Of a stretch of DNA of 32,000 nucleotides, positions 5,581 to 23,866 are shown in pieces; positions within the stretch are counted from its first letter, which is position 1, and each line of letters starts with the position of its first letter. Source of the stretch: Edaphobacter aggregans (GTDB taxonomy: Bacteria; Acidobacteriota; Terriglobia; Terriglobales; Acidobacteriaceae); contig NZ_RSDW01000001.1 in NCBI RefSeq assembly GCF_003945235.1, forward strand, positions 5,340,001 through 5,372,000. The letters run 5' to 3'. Both the position numbers and the translations under genes were made by a program. Under the pieces are notes generated by a model. The model saw only the letters and a list, made by a program, of their open reading frames with translations. It was not told the origin of the DNA and ran no database searches.

Positions 5581-5637
5581 CGTCCAGTCGGGGACTTTCC
5601 ACTTGGACGAAGAGTCGGCTTTCCGGACAAGTGACCC
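5581..5637. repeat. two units of the dispersed intergenic repeat
   Basis: cgtccagtcggggactttccacttggac followed by gaagagtcggctttccggacaagtgacc. The second matches the consensus AAGTCGGnTTTCCGGcAAGT. Confidence 0.6.
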
Positions 5638-7730: not shown

Positions 7731-8018
7731 CCCAACCACAAACGGGTCAAGACGGCAAACCGTAATCTCCTAGCAAGCCCGGCGAGTCGAGGCAAATCCA
7801 GCTGACCGCCGATCCGCGCCAGTTGGCTCGCTACGATTCAGCCGCCTCGCAGTGGCGCGTCGCACCGGGTGTTGACCATGTGGCCCTAGGCAGGTCAGCC
7901 ACTGATCTCGTGCTGAAGGCGACACTCAGATATCCGGGCGCCTTTTCGGAAAGAGAGGGCCCACAGTTGGCGGTAGCAGACCAATGCGCTGATTGAGAAG
8001 GCGTAACGCTGCAATCAC

Positions 8019-8111
8019 TTTGCCGGAAAGTCGGTTTGTCGGACAAGTGCCTGTGGGCCGGCATCTATGGAAATCACTTCTCCGGATAGCCGGTTTTACG
8101 TCCACTTGAAC
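8019..8111. repeat. array of units of the dispersed intergenic repeat
   Basis: tttgccggaaagtcggtttgtcggacaagtgcc (8019-8051) and ttctccggatagccggttttacgtccacttgaac (8078-8111), with a degenerate unit between them. Confidence 0.7.
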
Positions 8112-8291
8112 TGGGAGGACATCAGTAAACAGAAGCCCACTTCTCGTTACCGATCGATACTCGATGAGTGCCTCGGCGATTTGTCATCAAGCGAGACAGC
8201 CAGATCGCGGCACCAATCTCCGGAATTCCAAAGATTGACGTCGTGTCTAGTGGATTTTATAGCGGGTTTGACACTCCCAAATACCATGACT

Positions 8292-11559: not shown

Positions 11560-12663
11560 ATGAAGAAGCTTACCACTACGATGATGCAGCAGACACTCAA
11601 CAAGCAGGACCGATGCCTGACCGTCGGTCTGGATCTGGGCGACAGGTCGAGCTTTTATTGCGTGCTCGATGAAGCAGGTAACGTCCTGATGGAGCAGAAG
11701 GTGAGCACGACGCCCAAGGCGATAAAAGAGATCTTCGGAGCGATGCCTCGGAGTCGTATCGCACTGGAGACCGGAACGCATTCACCGTGGGTAAGCCGGT
11801 TGCTTAGCGAACTGGGTCATGAGGCGATCGTGGCGCACGCGCGCAGCGTGCGACTGATCGGGGAGAGCAGGCGCAAGGATGATCGGCTTGACGCCATGAC
11901 GCTCGCGCGACTGGTACGGATCGATCCACATCTGTTGTGCCCAGTGAAGCATCGCAGCGCCGAGGCACAAGCGGATCTGACGGTGATCCGAGCGCGAGCC
12001 GCTCTGGTCCGTACACGAACGATGTTGGTCAACGCGGCCCGCGGCCTGACGAAGTCCTACGGGGAACGACTCCGCGGATGCAACGCACGCGGGATGAACC
12101 CGAAGGCAGCTCAGGATCTGAGTCCGGAGTTGAAGTATGCGCTGGAGCCGATGATGCTCGAGATAGAGTCGGCCAGCGAACGGATCTGCGAGTACGATCA
12201 GATGCTCGAGTCTATGGCGCGGGACAGGTATCCAGAAGCGGAGCTGCTGAAGCAGATCAAGGGAGTGGGAACGCTCATCGCCCTCACCTACATGCTGACG
12301 CTGGAAGATCCTTATCGTTTCCGCAAGAGCCGGGATGCAGCCTGCTACGTGGGGCTCCAACCTGGAAGGCGCAACTCGGGACAGAGCGAGCCGCAGATGC
12401 ACATCAGCAAAGAGGGCGATCCGTACCTGCGAGCACTCCTGGTGCAGGCTGCACATCATGTGCTCGGTCCGTGGGGAGTTGACAGCGATCTGCGCCGTTG
12501 GGGCATGAAGCTGGCTGAGCACGGAGGCAAGCGCGGGAAGAAACGCGCCGTGATCGCAGTTGCGCGTAAGCTGGCCGTCCTGCTGCATCGACTCTGGGTG
12601 AGCGGAGATGTTTATGTGCCGATACGGCCAGGCGGCCGGGACACACTGCCGGCAGTGGCATAG
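11560..12663 (+). CDS. IS110-family transposase (DEDD N-terminal domain plus IS116/IS110/IS902 C-terminal domain)
   Basis: 367 aa and uninterrupted. Motifs: VGLDLGDRSSFYCVLDEAG, RRKDDRLDAMTLARL, IKGVGTLIALTYMLTLEDPYRFRKSRDAACYVGLQPGRRNSGQ and HISKEGDPYLRALLVQAA. Confidence 0.95.
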   Translation: MKKLTTTMMQQTLNKQDRCLTVGLDLGDRSSFYCVLDEAGNVLMEQKVSTTPKAIKEIFGAMPRSRIALETGTHSPWVSRLLSELGHEAIVAHARSVRLIGESRRKDDRLDAMTLARLVRIDPHLLCPVKHRSAEAQADLTVIRARAALVRTRTMLVNAARGLTKSYGERLRGCNARGMNPKAAQDLSPELKYALEPMMLEIESASERICEYDQMLESMARDRYPEAELLKQIKGVGTLIALTYMLTLEDPYRFRKSRDAACYVGLQPGRRNSGQSEPQMHISKEGDPYLRALLVQAAHHVLGPWGVDSDLRRWGMKLAEHGGKRGKKRAVIAVARKLAVLLHRLWVSGDVYVPIRPGGRDTLPAVA

Positions 12664-16720: not shown

Positions 16721-18180
16721 ATGAGTGCATTGTTTGAATGCTAAGTCTGGGAGGAGCACGAGGTGTTGCAAAAGGCTGAACTCAGCTGTGAGGCTGATTC
16801 AGAGAACTACCTCGGAGGCTCCTCAGAGACGATTATGTATTACATCGGACTTGATGTTCACACGAAGACGATCAGCTATTGCGTAAAGGAAGCAGCTGGT
16901 CATGTGCACCGGGAAGGCAAGATCGGTGCGACGAGAGGTGAGCTTGATGCATGGATCAAGACGTTACCTCAACCTCGGATGATGGCCATGGAGGCGACGA
17001 TCTTCACCGGCTGGATTTACGATCACCTGCTTCCGCAGGCCGAGAAGGTGAAGGTGACCCATCCGCTGATGCTCCGGGCTATCGCCGCGTCCAAGAAGAA
17101 GAACGACCGTATCGATGCCGGCAAGATTGCCGACTGCCTGCGGTGCGACTTTCTGCCCGAGTGCCATATGGCTTCGACGGAGATTCGAGACCGACGCCGT
17201 ACGTTGCGCTACCGGAACCAGGTGATACGGCAGATGGTGCAGATGAAGAACCGTGTATCGGGGCTGCTCATGGAAAGCGGGGTCAGCTATGACAAGCAGC
17301 GGCTGCATAAGATGGTTACTTCAGCGAACTGTTCTCGACCAACGAGGAGATCAGCGACAGCATCCGGCCCCTGCTTCGGCTTGGCCGCGAACACATCCTG
17401 CGAGGTCAACGACTGGATCGTGCGCTGATCAGTTCACTGGAACGAGATCCGCTGCTGTCGGAGCGGTTGAGACGACTGAGGACGATCCCCGGAGTCGGTC
17501 CCATCACCGCGCTGACCTGGGCCCTGGAGATCGGAGACTATACCCGCTTCCCATCGGTGAAGGAAGCCATCAGCTACTGCGGACTATGCGGCGCCGAGAA
17601 GAGCTCTGCCGAGGTGATGCGCATGCCGATTTCCAAGCAGAGGAACAAGCACATCCAGCATGTACTGGTGGAAGCCGCCAAGCTGGCGCCCCGAAACTCC
17701 CACGAACTGGCCCTGCTCCGGGAGAAGGAAATTCAGCGAGGGAACAAAAATCGGGCCACCCTGGCGGTAGCCAGGAAGCTGGTGGCCTACATGCTCGCGG
17801 TAGACCGCAGGAAACAGGACTTCGTGCCGGCCGAAGAGTTGGCGGCCAAAGCAGTGGCTTGAAAAAACCTTCCTAATAAGGAAGAACAAAACAAGATCAT
17901 TCGATGCGCAGGCTGCCAGGTCCTGCACTAAATCGCCCGGGCGACGGAGGAAACTCCCGAGGCTCTCTTCGCATTGTTTCGGGACTGGCAGAGAACACAA
18001 ACTCAATCTTCTGCGACAGCTCTACGGAGCTTGAGGCAGCAAATGGATGTCCGGTCCTGCTGGGAGCAGGGACCACTAGCCGAGAGGCACACGTGCGCAG
18101 GACGATGACCCGATCAGACCGAATGCGCGCACTCCTGAGCGCGCCTAGAAATATCGTGCCCTTTTCTTGACAGATGACTT
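16721..18180 (+). mobile_element. IS110-family element, copy 3, inactivated (boundaries only bracketed)
   Basis: The broken transposase at 16835-17862 lies between repeat-family units at 16671-16720 and about 18180-18209. The bracket is about 1.46 kb, within the usual IS110-family size range. Exact ends are not determinable by eye. Confidence 0.3.
16835..17862 (+). pseudogene. IS110-family transposase with a single frameshift
   Basis: MYYIGLDVHTKTISYCVKEAAG...KKKNDRIDAGKIADCL...KQRLHK is in one frame. The sequence continues as GYFSELFSTNEEISDSIRPLLRLGREHILRGQRLDRALISSLERDPLLSERLRRLRTIPGVGPITALTWALEIGDYTRF... in the frame of ORF 17467-17862. The frame change is at about 17308-17316 (cataagatggttac). 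Confidence 0.85.
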
Positions 18181-20429: not shown

Positions 20430-20519
20430 ATTGCCCGAACAGGTCAGTTGGCTCGTACAGGACGATACGCTCATCGAACTCGCGGTTAGGACCCAATCTG
20501 CGGATTAGTCCTGATCAAC

Positions 20520-20780
20520 GCGCTTGAATTTACCAATCAGACTGTAGTTCCCGGAAAGTCGGATTTTCGGCAAGTTCGGTGACGTTTCCGAAAACTCCGT
20601 TTTACCGGGAAGTTCGACGATAGGCACGGGCATCGGGCGAAGGATTACTTCCGGATTCACAGCCATCCGGGGATGAATACACTGCTGATCGTCGGCTTCG
20701 ACTGGCCCTAATAGGAGGGGCCCGAAATTGGCTTTTAGGAAAGCAGGTTTTAGTACTTGAACCAATCTGAGCGTGAGGTG
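20520..20780. repeat. longest array (about 8 units) of the dispersed quasi-palindromic intergenic repeat
   Basis: Two well-preserved tandem 36-nt units: ttcccggaaagtcggattttcggcaagttcggtgac (20548-20583) and gtttccgaaaactccgttttaccgggaagttcgacg (20584-20619). They are flanked by progressively degenerate units, for example ttccggattcacagccatccgg (20649-) and cccgaaattggcttttaggaaagcagg (20721-). Confidence 0.75.
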
Positions 20781-20782
20781 CC

Positions 20783-21211
20783 TCAGATTCTCAATGAGGT
20801 ATTCGGGAACGCCTTCCTTGTGAAGCGCCTGAGTAGCAGGACATAGAAGAGGGTGGTGAGAAAGCCGATGAACAGCGCCATTGAAGCTCCTGCACCATCC
20901 CCTTGCCAAGTGATCCGACCATATTCGAGCAGCGGCCATCCCAACAGAAAACAGGGGCCGATTGCCGTTCCAATGGCCAAGATGGCCCAGGTACGCCAAC
21001 CATCTGCGTTCTTGAAGTAAATAACGAAGGGCAGAGCGAGGACCCAACCTGGGAGCGTAAAGAGTAGGTATACCGGCAATATCTGAACAACCGGCCTTGC
21101 ATACCTCGGTCCGAATTGGACTGCAGCGTGTACGATGCCCAGGAGGGCGAAGGCCGCAAATGCGAGAAGCATGCAAGCGAATGCTAAGGCCATTCGTTTC
21201 GGAGTCGTCAT
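20783..21211 (-). CDS. small integral membrane protein (4 predicted TM helices), function unknown
   Basis: Start at MTTPKRMALAFACMLLAFAAF, with GGGGAG about 7 nt upstream. There are four hydrophobic stretches. It is preferred over the overlapping Arg/Pro-rich ORF 20505-21176. Confidence 0.55.
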   Translation of the reverse strand: MTTPKRMALAFACMLLAFAAFALLGIVHAAVQFGPRYARPVVQILPVYLLFTLPGWVLALPFVIYFKNADGWRTWAILAIGTAIGPCFLLGWPLLEYGRITWQGDGAGASMALFIGFLTTLFYVLLLRRFTRKAFPNTSLRI

Positions 21212-21328
21212 GTAATGCTCCCCGGGGTGACGACCTCGAATATTAGCAGAACCCGCAACTAACCCTACCCGGGGCAGACTTCCTATTCCCGGACGTATCA
21301 CCGTCAATCCGAAAGTAATCCTGCAGTG

Positions 21329-21409
21329 CCCGCAAAGTTACATTATCGGCAAGTTCAAACCGCGGTCGACGAAGTTTCTCAAAACCCCGTTTTACTCTAA
21401 AGTGTGAGG
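21329..21409. repeat. two units of the dispersed intergenic repeat
   Basis: cccgcaaagttacattatcggcaagttcaaacc (21329-21361) and gtttctcaaaaccccgttttactctaaagtgtgagg (21374-21409). They are collinear with the pair at 20548-20619. Confidence 0.7.
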
Positions 21410-21419
21410 CTAGTGAACG

Positions 21420-21758
21420 GTGAGATATCAAGGGGTAATTGAGCGGGACCGAGAAGAAGTGGAACTTCTTCTGCGAAGCAACGACGAGCATGAGGTTCAG
21501 GACGCGCTTCTCAGTGCGGCCTACTACGATCCAGATTGGAGATGGGTTCAGGGGAAGTGCCTCGCTCTTAGTCACCATCCTGGTCCCAGAGTGCGATGGA
21601 TCGCCGCAACTTGCTTAGGCCATCTCGCAAGAATCCACCGTCAGCTCGACCTTGAATTGGTACTTCAAAGATTGGCCGAGTTGAAGGCCGACCCATTGGT
21701 CAAGGCAGGTGCGGAGGACGCATTAGACGACATCCGCTTTTACCTGAAGTTCCAGTAG
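21420..21758 (+). CDS. small HEAT-repeat-like hypothetical protein
   Basis: 112 aa with a GTG start. Three helical repeats have the HEAT-like pattern (EHEVQDALLSAAYY, GPRVRWIAATCLGHLA, DPLVKAGAEDALDDI). The last 8 codons are encoded by a repeat-family unit. Confidence 0.5.
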   Translation: MRYQGVIERDREEVELLLRSNDEHEVQDALLSAAYYDPDWRWVQGKCLALSHHPGPRVRWIAATCLGHLARIHRQLDLELVLQRLAELKADPLVKAGAEDALDDIRFYLKFQ

Positions 21759-21791
21759 CTCCCGTAAAGTCGGGTTTCCGGCAAGTTCGAC
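21731..21791. repeat. two units of the dispersed intergenic repeat, the first inside the 3' end of the CDS
   Basis: catccgcttttacctgaagttccag (21731-21755), then the stop codon, then ctcccgtaaagtcgggtttccggcaagttcgac (21759-21791). Confidence 0.7.
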
Positions 21792-21840
21792 AGCTCCGGT
21801 ACGACTGGATCATGGATGCGCGGTTAGGGAGGCCGCATCC

Positions 21841-22797
21841 ATGTACCAGAAGCGAAAAGCTAGGCGCCGTTCGACTAGGACAACGTTGCGCCTACCCGAC
21901 CTCGATCATTCTAAGAACTCTGTTCTTCAAAGCCTTGGATCTGCGGCATCGAAGCGGACCTACGGGGCCGCTATCGAAGATTTCATAACGTGGTACTGCT
22001 CAGAGCCGCGTCTCGCCTTCGGACGAACCGTGGTGCTGAGATATAGGTACGAGTTGGAGTCCCGCAGACTAGCCCCAGCGACGATTAATCTGAGGCTCGC
22101 AGCGGTCAGACGACTGGCTTACGAAGCGTCCGACAACGGCCTTCTCAATCCAGATCTAGCGGCAGGCATCCGTCGGGTGAAAGGGGCGAAGCGCCTCGGA
22201 ATGAGGATTGGCAACTGGCTCACTGCTGGTCAGGGTAGAAAGCTGCTTGAGGTGCCCGGTTCGGGTTCAATCAGAGATAAGCGTGACCACGCTATGCTCT
22301 CCCTGCTGCTCGGTTGCGGTTTGCGACGTGCGGAGCTGACCGGGTTGACGGTGGACCACCTCCAGCAAAGAGACGAGCACTGGGCCATTATCAATCTGTT
22401 CGGGAAGGGAGGTCATGTTCGAACGGTGCCTGTTCCCAGCTGGGTCAAGCTAGTTCTGGATCAATGGCTCACTGCTGCCGGTATCGAGGAGGGAGTTGTC
22501 TTTCGGCGTGTCAGCCGAACAGGAACTGTCTGGGGTCCGAAGATAAGCGAAAAACTTGTTTGGTGGGTGGTCCGGGAGAGGGCAAAAGCCGCAGGCATCG
22601 ACAAGCTAGCACCTCATGATCTCCGGCGCACCTGTGCTCGGTTGTGTCATGCTGCCGGAGGAGAACTTGAGCAGATTCAGTTCCTGCTTGGCCACCGCTC
22701 AGTCGAGACCACCGAACGATATCTGGGTTGCCGCCAAAGGCTCGCATCCGCAGTCAACGACAAGATCGGTATCGAGCCAACCTCCGGCGCTCCCTAG
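21841..22797 (+). CDS. tyrosine-type site-specific recombinase/integrase
   Basis: 318 aa. The catalytic region reads GLRRAEL ... GKGGHVRTVPVP ... APHDLRRTCARLCHAAGGELEQIQFLLGHRSVETTERYL (R, H-x-x-R, H and Y present). The N-terminal SAM-like core-binding region includes TINLRLAAVRRL. Confidence 0.92.
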   Translation: MYQKRKARRRSTRTTLRLPDLDHSKNSVLQSLGSAASKRTYGAAIEDFITWYCSEPRLAFGRTVVLRYRYELESRRLAPATINLRLAAVRRLAYEASDNGLLNPDLAAGIRRVKGAKRLGMRIGNWLTAGQGRKLLEVPGSGSIRDKRDHAMLSLLLGCGLRRAELTGLTVDHLQQRDEHWAIINLFGKGGHVRTVPVPSWVKLVLDQWLTAAGIEEGVVFRRVSRTGTVWGPKISEKLVWWVVRERAKAAGIDKLAPHDLRRTCARLCHAAGGELEQIQFLLGHRSVETTERYLGCRQRLASAVNDKIGIEPTSGAP

Positions 22798-22804
22798 GGC
22801 TCAA

Positions 22805-22863
22805 GTTTCCGAAAACGTGACTTTGCGGGAACGCTGCCTTTCGCGGAGAATCGAAGTTGGTGC
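22805..22863. repeat. units of the dispersed intergenic repeat
   Basis: gtttccgaaaacgtgactttgcgggaacgctgcc (22805-22838) plus a degenerate unit. It shares aagtttccgaaaa with 20584, 21374 and 31506. Confidence 0.65.
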
Positions 22864-22884
22864 ATATCCAACAGGCAGGGTCTT

Positions 22885-23214
22885 ATGACACTTGACGAAG
22901 TTCGGGCGTTGGTGCGTGCGCAAAGTGCCGAGAACCTCTCGGTCACAAATGCCCACCGCATAAAGTTAGAGCAAGCGATCATCTCACCCCAAACAATCTC
23001 GCTAATCTTCCGAACGGTCGTAGATGGTCGCGTGAAGGACCAAACCTTGAATGCCTGGCTCGTCGGGCAAGAGGGGACAGCCGATGGCTACAAGATTGTT
23101 ATGCGGGAAGATGGCAAGCAGTTCGGTCTCGCCTCAGTTGGTTTCCCACATGATAAACATCTGATCTTAGTCGGATGGTATAGCTCGCTGCTGTCAGCAT
23201 TCCTAGCTATGTAG
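22885..23214 (+). CDS. hypothetical protein
   Basis: 109-codon ORF with ATG start, plausible composition and no motif I recognise. It is bracketed on both sides by repeat arrays. Confidence 0.45.
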   Translation: MTLDEVRALVRAQSAENLSVTNAHRIKLEQAIISPQTISLIFRTVVDGRVKDQTLNAWLVGQEGTADGYKIVMREDGKQFGLASVGFPHDKHLILVGWYSSLLSAFLAM

Positions 23215-23217
23215 ATT

Positions 23218-23415
23218 GGTTCCCTGAAAACGGCGTTTTGGGCAACTACGATCTGCCCTCCAACCCGAACTTGCCGCAAAGCCGACTTTACGGGCGGTAC
23301 GAGGATTACTTCCGGAATGGCGGTGACTCGTTAACCCCAAACCTTCATTCAAGGACATACAGCAGGCGAAGCCGCACAGAGCAGTTGACGTCTTGCCGAA
23401 GTTATCTGCGAAAGG
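23218..23415. repeat. array of units of the dispersed repeat in mixed orientation
   Basis: ggttccctgaaaacggcgttttgggcaactacgat (23218-23252). The reverse complement of 23264-23294 is cccgtaaagtcggctttgcggcaagttcggg, nearly identical to 21761-21791. Also attacttccggaatggcggtgac (23305-) and a reversed unit at 23384-23415. Confidence 0.7.
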
Positions 23416-23416
23416 G

Positions 23417-23854
23417 TCACTTATCTTTGTGGGATTTGCGCCTGTTTCCAGGCGCGCTGGGTGCGGTGTTTGGTTGATTGCCTGGGCCCGGAGCGGGCCT
23501 TACTTTGCCGGTTCCCGATCCCTCAGCAGACGCTTCGGGTAATTGTGCACTAGTTTGGGGCCGGGTAAGTGCTATCCGGATCGCCACGCCGTTCTTTTTG
23601 CCAGGATCGATGTTGTAGTCGGCGGTGACGGGCAGATTGTTGACGAATCCGTCGCGCAGGAGGCTGAACATTGCCTGGCGGGCGGGAAGGTTGTTGTCAT
23701 TTCGAAGTTGAAAGCCGTAAGCACCATCGCTGATTGCGTTGAGGCAGAAGACAGCTTCTACATCCAGCTGATCGTTTGGAGGACCAAAGCCGGTGCCAAG
23801 GTCGTGGGCGCGAAGAAAGACAACTTTTCCGGTTTTTTCAAGCAGGTTGGGCAT
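23417..23854 (-). CDS. small protein: N-terminal roughly 95-aa domain paralogous to the C-terminus of the upstream gene, plus a disordered Pro/Gly/Ala-rich basic tail
   Basis: 145 aa. GAGGAG lies 8 nt upstream and overlaps the upstream gene's TGA. Residues 1-95 (..KVVFLRAHDLGTGFGPPNDQLDVEAV...YGFQLRNDNNLPARQAMFSLLRDGFVNNLPVTADY..) align without gaps, at about 40% identity by eye, to the last 95 aa of 23867-24940. Confidence 0.7.
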   Translation of the reverse strand: MPNLLEKTGKVVFLRAHDLGTGFGPPNDQLDVEAVFCLNAISDGAYGFQLRNDNNLPARQAMFSLLRDGFVNNLPVTADYNIDPGKKNGVAIRIALTRPQTSAQLPEASAEGSGTGKVRPAPGPGNQPNTAPSAPGNRRKSHKDK

Positions 23855-23866
23855 GGTTGAGTCTCC

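Follow-up and report, generated by a model that had tools for sequence, protein, structure and literature searches.

The spacers in the right-hand third of the 32,000-nucleotide stretch of acidobacterial DNA analysed here (contig NZ_RSDW01000001.1; the whole stretch is called the window) carry a family of short quasi-palindromic units arranged around a gene for a tyrosine recombinase (positions 21841-22797). Each unit has two inverted 12-bp arms and a 6-bp centre that comes in two mutually exclusive types, named G and A, and the units lie in fixed orientations at the borders of small gene segments which we call modules. We read the units as core recombination sites, heterospecific between the two types, in a cassette or module system that resembles integrons and the dif modules of Acinetobacter, a reading to which we give a probability of roughly 60%. 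The fuller proposal is advanced more tentatively, at slightly below even odds: an undescribed gene-cassette system of the Acidobacteriaceae, in which an Xer-like recombinase encoded between inverted G sites would build arrays of small accessory modules outward in both directions, with heterospecific G and A bounds and with sister clades using site families of their own. The system is neither a REP/RAYT system nor an integron. No description of such a system was found in the open-access literature, either by keyword or by unit sequence.

Anatomy and grammar of the units

The repeats had been noticed in a preliminary description, made from the sequence alone, as one family that builds almost every intergenic spacer. 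A profile was constructed from twelve of its best units and used in nhmmer searches. With a threshold of E ≤ 0.003 it detects 13 window units, all of which lie from 20.5 to 31.6 kb (those given with E values in the list below). “Almost every spacer” was an overstatement because the units occupy 8 of approximately 28 spacers, in the right-hand third only. The family itself is well founded. Its strict pattern has 4 matches against 0.00 expected (100 shuffles, none with a match), and a search of relatives for the same consensus gave 420 units over ~1 Mb (window and 124 related loci of Acidobacteriaceae, the latter numbered with the prefix L) and 0 units in the reversed sequences used as decoys. 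All unit statistics below refer to these 420 units. A dispersed, intergenic, quasi-palindromic family, for which the open-access literature held no description, was thus correctly recognized, but it is narrower and more ordered than claimed. Among the copies considered best preserved, those at 5609 and 8019 are marginal (E 0.1-1.4); the weaker copies (1663, 12685, 12985, 16671, 18189, 29886, 31212) receive no support from the profile search. The supposed second subtype (2928, 8078, 28500, 28532) is a separate family, T, and not part of the same one. Segments 5600-5633 and 8016-8049 carry a variant form whose tail differs from that of the unit (CACTTG..CCGGAAAGTCGG..CGGACAAGTG) and which the main profile picks up only marginally. 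The degenerate copy of an IS110-family element at 1743-2879 appears to occupy a site like this variant.

The consensus of the 420 units reads AsTTsCCGnAAA, the 6-bp centre, TTTnCGGsAAsT and then TCGa. Two mirror-image 12-bp inverted arms therefore flank the centre, with a TCG tail on one side; the opposite side is called the head. Positions 1-3 of the centre are GTC in 254 units and ACG in 147, with hardly anything else, and this defines the two unit types, G (GTCGGG) and A (ACGGGG), which differ at 3 of the 6 positions. In some lineages the centre is 7 bp long. Ahead of the left arm the units read nnAnTT in consensus, and only some of the copies have GTAG.

Single units fold no better than shuffled sequences (z ~0). 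The five window pairs have folding z values of -3.6, +0.8, -0.5, 0.0 and -3.8, so that two of the five do better than shuffles. At variable positions the two units of a pair resemble each other no more than randomly matched units do, and they display no compensatory change; Rfam returned nothing at the gathering threshold for the whole window nor at E ≤ 1 for 20.4-31.7 kb. With folding inconsistent and with covariation and Rfam negative, the units behave as duplex protein sites and not as selected hairpins; the hairpin core formerly attributed to them is not supported. A single-stranded hairpin with a central bubble, in the style of attC or of the CTX attP, was also considered: the G/A mismatch would supply the bubble, and nothing else supports folding.

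The order and orientation of the units obey a simple grammar. Neighbours at most 60 bp apart (close pairs) are convergent in 105 of 106 cases, with the TCG tails facing each other, and these 105 comprise 98 G/A pairs, one GG and no AA. The inverted pairs first described are thus real while the direct tandems are not: the segment 20584-20619, taken for a direct tandem copy, is an inverted one, and long tandem arrays decaying outward are not what is found. Divergent neighbours, which stand head-to-head, never form close pairs; 285-6320 bp (median 810) lie between them, and they are heterotypic in 107 of 119 cases. Gene modules of 0.3-6 kb are located between the heads of one G and one A unit, and adjacent modules meet tail-to-tail, which generates the ~72-bp quasi-palindromes seen before. 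The spacer at 20430-20782, previously regarded as essentially all array, is repeat over about one third of its length, with one pair (20544-20615) and a T-like motif (20639-20683); its remainder has no similarity to the units.

Polarity was defined as R for G+ or A- units and as L for G- or A+ units. It is kept between consecutive sites in 165 of 184 cases and from pair to pair in 32 of 32. It flips at the recombinase gene, as found in the window, in L002, L110 (gene remnant), L212 and L129, and on plasmid pACIX905. Shufflons or other invertible segments were rejected on the pair-to-pair figure: inversion of a module would flip polarity because the triplet that defines the unit type lies on the module side of the site.

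Short modules are mostly occupied by a single open reading frame (ORF), the longest ORF covering a median of 87% of their length, and encode mostly proteins of unknown function. The direction of the ORFs is unrelated to the G-to-A polarity (37:40). Six of ten module proteins have no Pfam family; the others match CarboxypepD_reg, DUF4279, DUF7674 or TonB_C. Exact-protein look-ups found no record for six window proteins, the 109-aa protein of module M4 being the only one on record. The features of the window are the following (positions, strand, description; E values of units are from nhmmer).

20544-20580, +, G-type unit, centre GTCGGA, left half of a convergent pair (E 8e-12)
20579-20615, -, A-type unit, centre ACGGAG, right half of that pair (E 1.5e-5)
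20616-21321, module M1, one 174-aa ORF (20783-21307, -) without Pfam or NCBIfam family; T-family motifs at both ends (20639-20683, +; 21284-21323, -)
21322-21358, +, G-type unit (E 1.6e-7)
21367-21402, -, A-type unit (E 3.6e-5)
21403-21754, module M2, one 112-aa ORF (21420-21758, +)
21755-21792, +, solo G-type unit, 48 bp before the recombinase start codon (E 4e-11)
21809-21843, +, hairpin predicted from the sequence, its loop containing GGGAGG and its 3′ stem the recombinase ATG
21841-22797, +, Xer-like simple tyrosine recombinase, 318 aa (PF00589, 4.6e-23)
22799-22833, -, solo G-type unit, 1 bp past the recombinase stop codon, left border of M4 (E 8e-10)
22834-23218, module M4, one 109-aa ORF (22885-23214)
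23219-23254, +, A-type unit (E 9.5e-9)
23265-23301, -, G-type unit (E 2e-9)
23302-25190, module M5, a 145-aa ORF and a 420-aa NF038122-family metalloprotease, both -; T-family motifs at both ends (23301-23336, +; 25126-25166, -)
25191-25220, +, A-type unit (E 4.9e-7)
25225-25261, -, degenerate G-type unit, centre GTCCG (E 0.003)
25262-28415, module M6, an ECF-type sigma factor, a 208-aa ORF and a 611-aa beta-lactamase-fold protein, all +
28416-28454, +, A-type unit (E 5.6e-6)
28449-28488, -, G-type unit (E 2.9e-9)
28489-31500, module M7, an aspartyl-protease-domain protein (+) and two GNAT acetyltransferases (-); two T-family motifs at the left end (28489-28524, 28523-28565)
31501-31533, -, degenerate unit, centre not typable (E 1.6e-4)
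1743-2879, -, IS110-family element, degenerate copy
2923-2962, +, T-family motif (part of the former second subtype)
8072-8113, +, T-family motif; the adjoining 8020-8043 is marginally related to the main unit (E 0.05-0.1)

The gene for the recombinase and the borders of the modules

The 318-aa protein has the catalytic residues R..H-x-x-R..H..Y, which appear in the alignment with XerD as GLRxxEL, HDLRR, LGH and the Tyr. It scores 111 bits against the XerC model (cutoff 335) and 100 bits against XerD (cutoff 330). The integron-integrase model TIGR02249 gives 44 bits (cutoff 265), over the C-terminus only, and PRK15417 gives 19 (cutoff 435). Its nearest solved relatives are XerD (the best, 59 bits) and XerA, with the IntI4 structure at 30 bits, again C-terminal only. 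The catalytic residues and the length are consistent with the simple (CB + CAT) Xer-like class, whose members lack an arm-binding domain. More than 100 relatives exist at 66-97% identity, nearly all of ~318 aa. The gene flanked by the units is hence not the RAYT/TnpA-REP gene that a REP-like family would lead one to look for, and none of the 23 window proteins scanned matches the Y1 transposase families. No relative of the recombinase was found in 50,697 phage records, and 2.9 million viral contigs gave one pattern match that is probably due to chance, which provides no sign of a phage origin.

The recombinase gene also forms a module of its own, framed by two G sites in inverted orientation; about 9 unrelated contexts show this arrangement. 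In the window the G+ unit ends 48 bp upstream of the ATG and the G- unit begins 1 bp after the stop codon. The layout G+/gene/G-, with a gap of 1006-1024 bp, is common to the window, L001, L002/L003, L004 (= L116) and L046, and an identical one is present in L212 and on the conjugative plasmid pACIX905 of Granulicella tundricola; the upstream solo G unit is likewise placed in L001, L002, L046, L212 and pACIX905. The genes around this frame differ from context to context, the recombinase locations are non-syntenic, and the 92-94% nucleotide homology among recombinase modules ends at the outer edges of both units. In L004 (E. modestus) the recombinase gene is frameshifted. The hairpin upstream of the gene (21809-21843) likely serves translational control. 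Among 14 homologs the inner stem still pairs with changes on both sides in 3 of 4 pairs, and distant homologs display the same upstream-hairpin layout with other sequences.

Homology between genomes breaks preferentially at the units. For homology blocks from different assemblies (≥80% identity, ≥250 bp, insertion sequences (IS) excluded), 48 of 151 ends lie within 30 bp of a unit centre while 4.3 are expected at random (maximum 12). Modules bounded by units at both ends in both genomes are found in L022/L088, L038/L120 and L017/L057. Module M4 recurs in Edaphobacter aggregans with 92% identity from the G-unit centre to the head arm of the A unit, in unrelated flanks; the other window genes shared with those loci at the nucleotide level are only ~68-79% identical. 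The exact M4 protein is encoded on two metagenome contigs (L210, L211) whose left neighbours differ. Both contigs match the window at 100% DNA identity over a stretch that begins within the G- unit and extends to the right across M4 and the next pair into M5. Left of the G- unit, the position that the recombinase gene occupies in the window is taken in L211 by an A+ unit and a spacer of 29 nt, and L210 departs from the window inside the 6-bp centre, at GTCA|CG.

Two contigs of one metagenome-assembled genome (MAG) differ by a 163-bp indel (L017 5496-5658 versus L070 1902/1903) that starts exactly at the border between arm and centre of an A unit (TTCGCGAAAA|ACGGGG). Another indel, between L037 and L085, was considered as a case of pair presence/absence and rejected, being an unrelated ~100-bp palindrome (GAGTGAATAGTGAAGAGTGAATAAAG...) at L085 7573-7674 that is absent from L037.

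Scanning 185,579 species genomes with a G-type pattern yielded at least 120 blocks of up to 8 kb each. Of the 120 blocks listed ~105 belong to Acidobacteriaceae (Granulicella, Edaphobacter, Tunturiibacter, Terracidiphilus, Bryocella, KBS 89, TAA 166 and many MAGs) and the others are single matches in unrelated taxa, as chance predicts. Among the matches listed, each genome is hit at several distant positions and contigs, with copies clustered in arrays. On the completely inspected plasmid pACIX905 (NC_015060.1) all 22 units are intergenic: 17 surround the recombinase gene in the accessory region (70-92 kb), 5 are at 7.8-26.7 kb, and the transfer/replication backbone has none. The accessory arrays of this plasmid also contain two copies, 97-98% identical, of a gene pair for a serine recombinase and an HNH endonuclease (67576-68648 and 84112-85172); related serine recombinase genes are present in L002/L003 and L090.

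An IS110-family element of ~1.4 kb is found inside A-type units, at TTCCCGnAA|AACGGGG and in constant orientation, and a complete unit results when its two flanks are rejoined. Of the ~105 unit-bearing blocks listed, 17 contain the element, with 21 copies in total; these blocks include L045 (3110-4487 and 5100-6477), L026, L051, L054, L015 and L111. The transposase gene of the degenerate window copy (1743-2879) is split over several ORFs. Two further IS110-family genes of the window (11560-12663 and 16763-17876) are ~27-35% identical to the A-unit element; one of them is intact, with a product of 367 aa (NF033542, 213 bits), and the other is broken into two ORFs.

The T family is a distinct family of sites, related to the main one. 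It is represented by eight copies in the window, with a consensus of approximately ACTTCCGGnTTGCCGGTGAyACGTCCAGAA, and is rare in the other loci (5 copies). T motifs are positioned just inside M1 and M5, at both ends and inverted. By eye, T resembles the motif that follows the stop codon in recombinase relatives of 61-69% identity, a likeness that is unconfirmed and rests on inspection because the T profile gave one match only in the flanks of these homologs. The T motifs may be sites of a second recombinase, one encoded outside the window.

The window as a whole is chromosome-like acidobacterial DNA of ~55% G+C. Besides the modules it codes a TIGR03436-type acidobacterial VWA protein, a PEP-CTERM protein, an ECF-type sigma factor, Trans_reg_C regulators fused to TPR or PD40 repeats and three IS110-family genes. 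Its segment 13135-14594 is 74% identical in DNA to L009 (3277-1816), which is part of a 756-kb plasmid of Tunturiibacter lichenicola; the shared stretch comprises a PEP-CTERM/DUF4394-like gene and the start of a neighbouring Trans_reg_C-TPR regulator gene.

A proposed recombination scheme and its alternatives

Inverted arms around a 6-bp centre are the design of tyrosine-recombinase core sites such as dif, lox and FRT. By analogy, each unit would be a double-stranded core site for the Xer-like recombinase of the window. That the units are recombination sites at module borders is indicated by the strict alternation of G and A, by the constant polarity of arrays with its flip at the recombinase gene, and by the homology breakpoints that coincide with units. 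Two monomers would bind the two 12-bp inverted arms (AsTTsCCGnAAA and its mirror) and cleave where the arms meet the 6-bp centre. Strand exchange depends on overlap sequences that match, and G and A differ at half of the centre positions, so that G would be expected to recombine only with G and A only with A; units with the same arms and two centres would then be heterospecific sites. The constant polarity of the arrays also argues that G and A do not recombine together, because a G x A event would invert modules and flip polarity.

Direct G x G (or A x A) recombination would free a circle carrying one module and one G/A pair. Re-insertion of the circle at any G (or A) site would regenerate the observed grammar, and arrays would thereby grow outward from the recombinase gene as mirror images. 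Starting from G+/gene/G-, the left side would become (G+ A-) M G+ gene and the right side gene G- M (A+ G-), a predicted order that is the one found in the window. Alternatively, a double crossover with incoming DNA, one at G and one at A, could swap a module.

Several observations weigh against this interpretation. The recombinase gene was found in only 4 or 5 blocks among the matches listed; with most unit-bearing 8-kb blocks devoid of it, the enzyme must act in trans. The spacing inside pairs is variable (-7 to +40 bp) and the role of the A site is left unexplained. Locus L213 has no downstream G site and no polarity flip. The unit-bearing loci were collected with the G-type pattern, which inflates both the G counts and the local density of units. 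The random positions that served as null for the breakpoint count are uncorrected for the intergenic preference of both units and block ends, so that the clean single cases are more telling. In one of these the divergent end of L210 amounts to 30 nt at the start of a short metagenome contig and may stem from assembly. Finally, distant recombinase homologs (61-69% identity, 80 metagenome loci) mostly lack units that the profile detects. However, in favour of the interpretation, the motif GCCGAC occurs in these homologs (L129-L208) 14-36 nt after the recombinase stop codon in 30 of 76 cases versus 1 of 76 in the control orientation, within a shared context (..GGAAGGnTT GCCGAC nAyCCG..AGAAT), and GTCGGC occurs upstream in 13 of 79 cases versus 2 of 79. 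The G centre is thus conserved family-wide, with arms that change. Local alignment gave a weak signal of flanking inverted repeats at the distant homologs (8 of 68 exceed shuffles, versus 4 of 68 in the direct-repeat control), so that the more informative test is that of the centre motif.

The convergent pair could instead be a mobile, non-autonomous element of the REPIN kind, copied into intergenic DNA by the recombinase that units flank and which would have the role of a RAYT. Settled pairs would act as terminators or structural elements, and the gene mosaic around them would be ordinary island turnover. The units are indeed short, intergenic and, among the matches listed, dispersed over many contigs per genome, they form inverted doublets, each genome has a single recombination gene lying between inverted units in the manner of RAYTs, and two of the five window pairs fold better than shuffles (z ~-3.7). 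The inverted doublets and the low-copy gene between inverted units are also what survives of the REP/BIME-like character attributed to the family at the outset; the enzyme, the folding and the tag speak against it. The enzyme belongs to the tyrosine recombinases and not to the HUH Y1 transposases, single units and three of the five pairs fold no better than shuffles, and the partners lack compensatory change. Pairs that insert themselves are not expected to keep the polarity of an array, to flip it at the recombinase gene or to show a strict G/A composition. Moreover, the genes on either side of units differ between genomes, rather than a simple indel of a pair between conserved genes being seen, and no clean presence/absence of a pair between syntenic genes was found in what is a small data set. 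We consider the REPIN-like explanation unlikely.

Inverted arms suit dimeric DNA-binding proteins generally, all sites are intergenic and some lie between divergent genes. The units might accordingly be operators, or binding sites of a repressor or nucleoid protein without a role in recombination, for the accessory genes, overlapping module borders only because both are intergenic. Such a function leaves unexplained the two exclusive centres with their strict alternation and a polarity maintained over tens of kb, as well as the fixed G+/gene/G- frame in unrelated contexts and the junction between 100%-identical and unrelated DNA inside a centre. It is given a low probability.

Crossover sites of small serine recombinases (Hin/Gin-like invertases or resolvases) are very improbable: the A-type unit TTCCCGCAAAACGGGGTTTTCGGCAA does resemble the hix and gix sites (TTCTTGAAAACCAAGGTTTTTGATAA) and serine recombinase genes recur on pACIX905 and in L002/L003, but among the plasmid, the window and the 124 loci such genes occur in only 4 places (pACIX905, L002, L003, L090; none in the window), have no fixed position relative to the units, unlike the tyrosine recombinase gene, and a type-defining centre of 6-7 bp suits the overlap of a tyrosine recombinase better than the textbook 2-bp crossover of a serine recombinase.

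Comparison with known systems

If the units are recombination sites of a module system, this would be a third natural way of packaging and shuffling small accessory genes by site-specific recombination, beside integrons and Acinetobacter dif modules, operating in one of the most abundant lineages of soil bacteria, on chromosomes and on a conjugative plasmid. The units would explain the target preference of the IS110-family element and serve as a simple marker by which arrays of accessory genes can be located in acidobacterial genomes and metagenomes. As a possible tool, the system could supply a small recombinase of one protein that works on two orthogonal sites.

In its working the proposed system comes closest to Acinetobacter dif modules and to integrons, and its likeness to REPIN-RAYT systems is a formal one. 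REP/BIME and REPIN-RAYT systems share with the present family small quasi-palindromic repeats between genes, most of them paired as inverted doublets. Common to both are also a gene in low copy number, which encodes an enzyme that cuts DNA and has inverted copies of the repeat on its two sides, and distinct enzyme clades carrying distinct repeats. REP/RAYT systems have a conserved GTAG (or CGTC) tag at one end of the repeat (PMC3733652). The family described here differs by its tyrosine recombinase, by the lack of a hairpin signal and of a conserved GTAG tag, and by the clustering of the units in polar arrays that bound exchangeable modules.

The likeness to integrons lies in arrays of mostly single-ORF cassettes of unknown function separated by ~70-bp imperfect palindromes, and in a tyrosine recombinase gene at the origin of the array, arrays devoid of this gene existing as well. 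Both are also targeted by IS110-family elements, the IS1111-attC elements being those that target integron attC sites. The recombinase is not IntI, an integrase type with an extra domain (44 bits for a cutoff of 265), and the units are conserved in sequence across genera whereas attC sites are conserved in folded structure. Furthermore, the ORFs are not co-oriented with the sites (37:40), the arrays extend both ways from the gene and modules may carry several genes. Identity of the units with attC was rejected on the enzyme and on the folded structure, which is not conserved.

Acinetobacter dif modules have short core sites with inverted arms around a 6-bp centre (12 + 6(-7) + 12 bp in the units), an alternating orientation of sites, small modules between inverted sites and the same module in varied company. 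Both systems have a dedicated IS that inserts into the sites at a fixed position, of the IS110 family here and of the IS1202 family in Acinetobacter (PMC10132070). Unlike the dif modules, which use host XerC and XerD, the arrays contain one dedicated Xer-like recombinase; there are two site types distinguished by the centre instead of one asymmetric C/D site; every border is a tail-to-tail G/A pair, the “tail” modules being nearly always empty; and the units are carried by chromosomes and plasmids of Acidobacteriaceae.

In laboratory recombinase-mediated cassette exchange, heterospecific lox or FRT sites are placed inverted around a cassette, which blocks inversion and excision and allows oriented exchange. 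The G and A units likewise are two site variants with the same arms, different centres and inverted positions at the flanks of a module. Their two-centre design suggests a built-in rule of the same kind, no inversion or loss with oriented exchange allowed, and what is engineered in the lox/FRT systems would, by this analogy, be natural in the Acidobacteriaceae.

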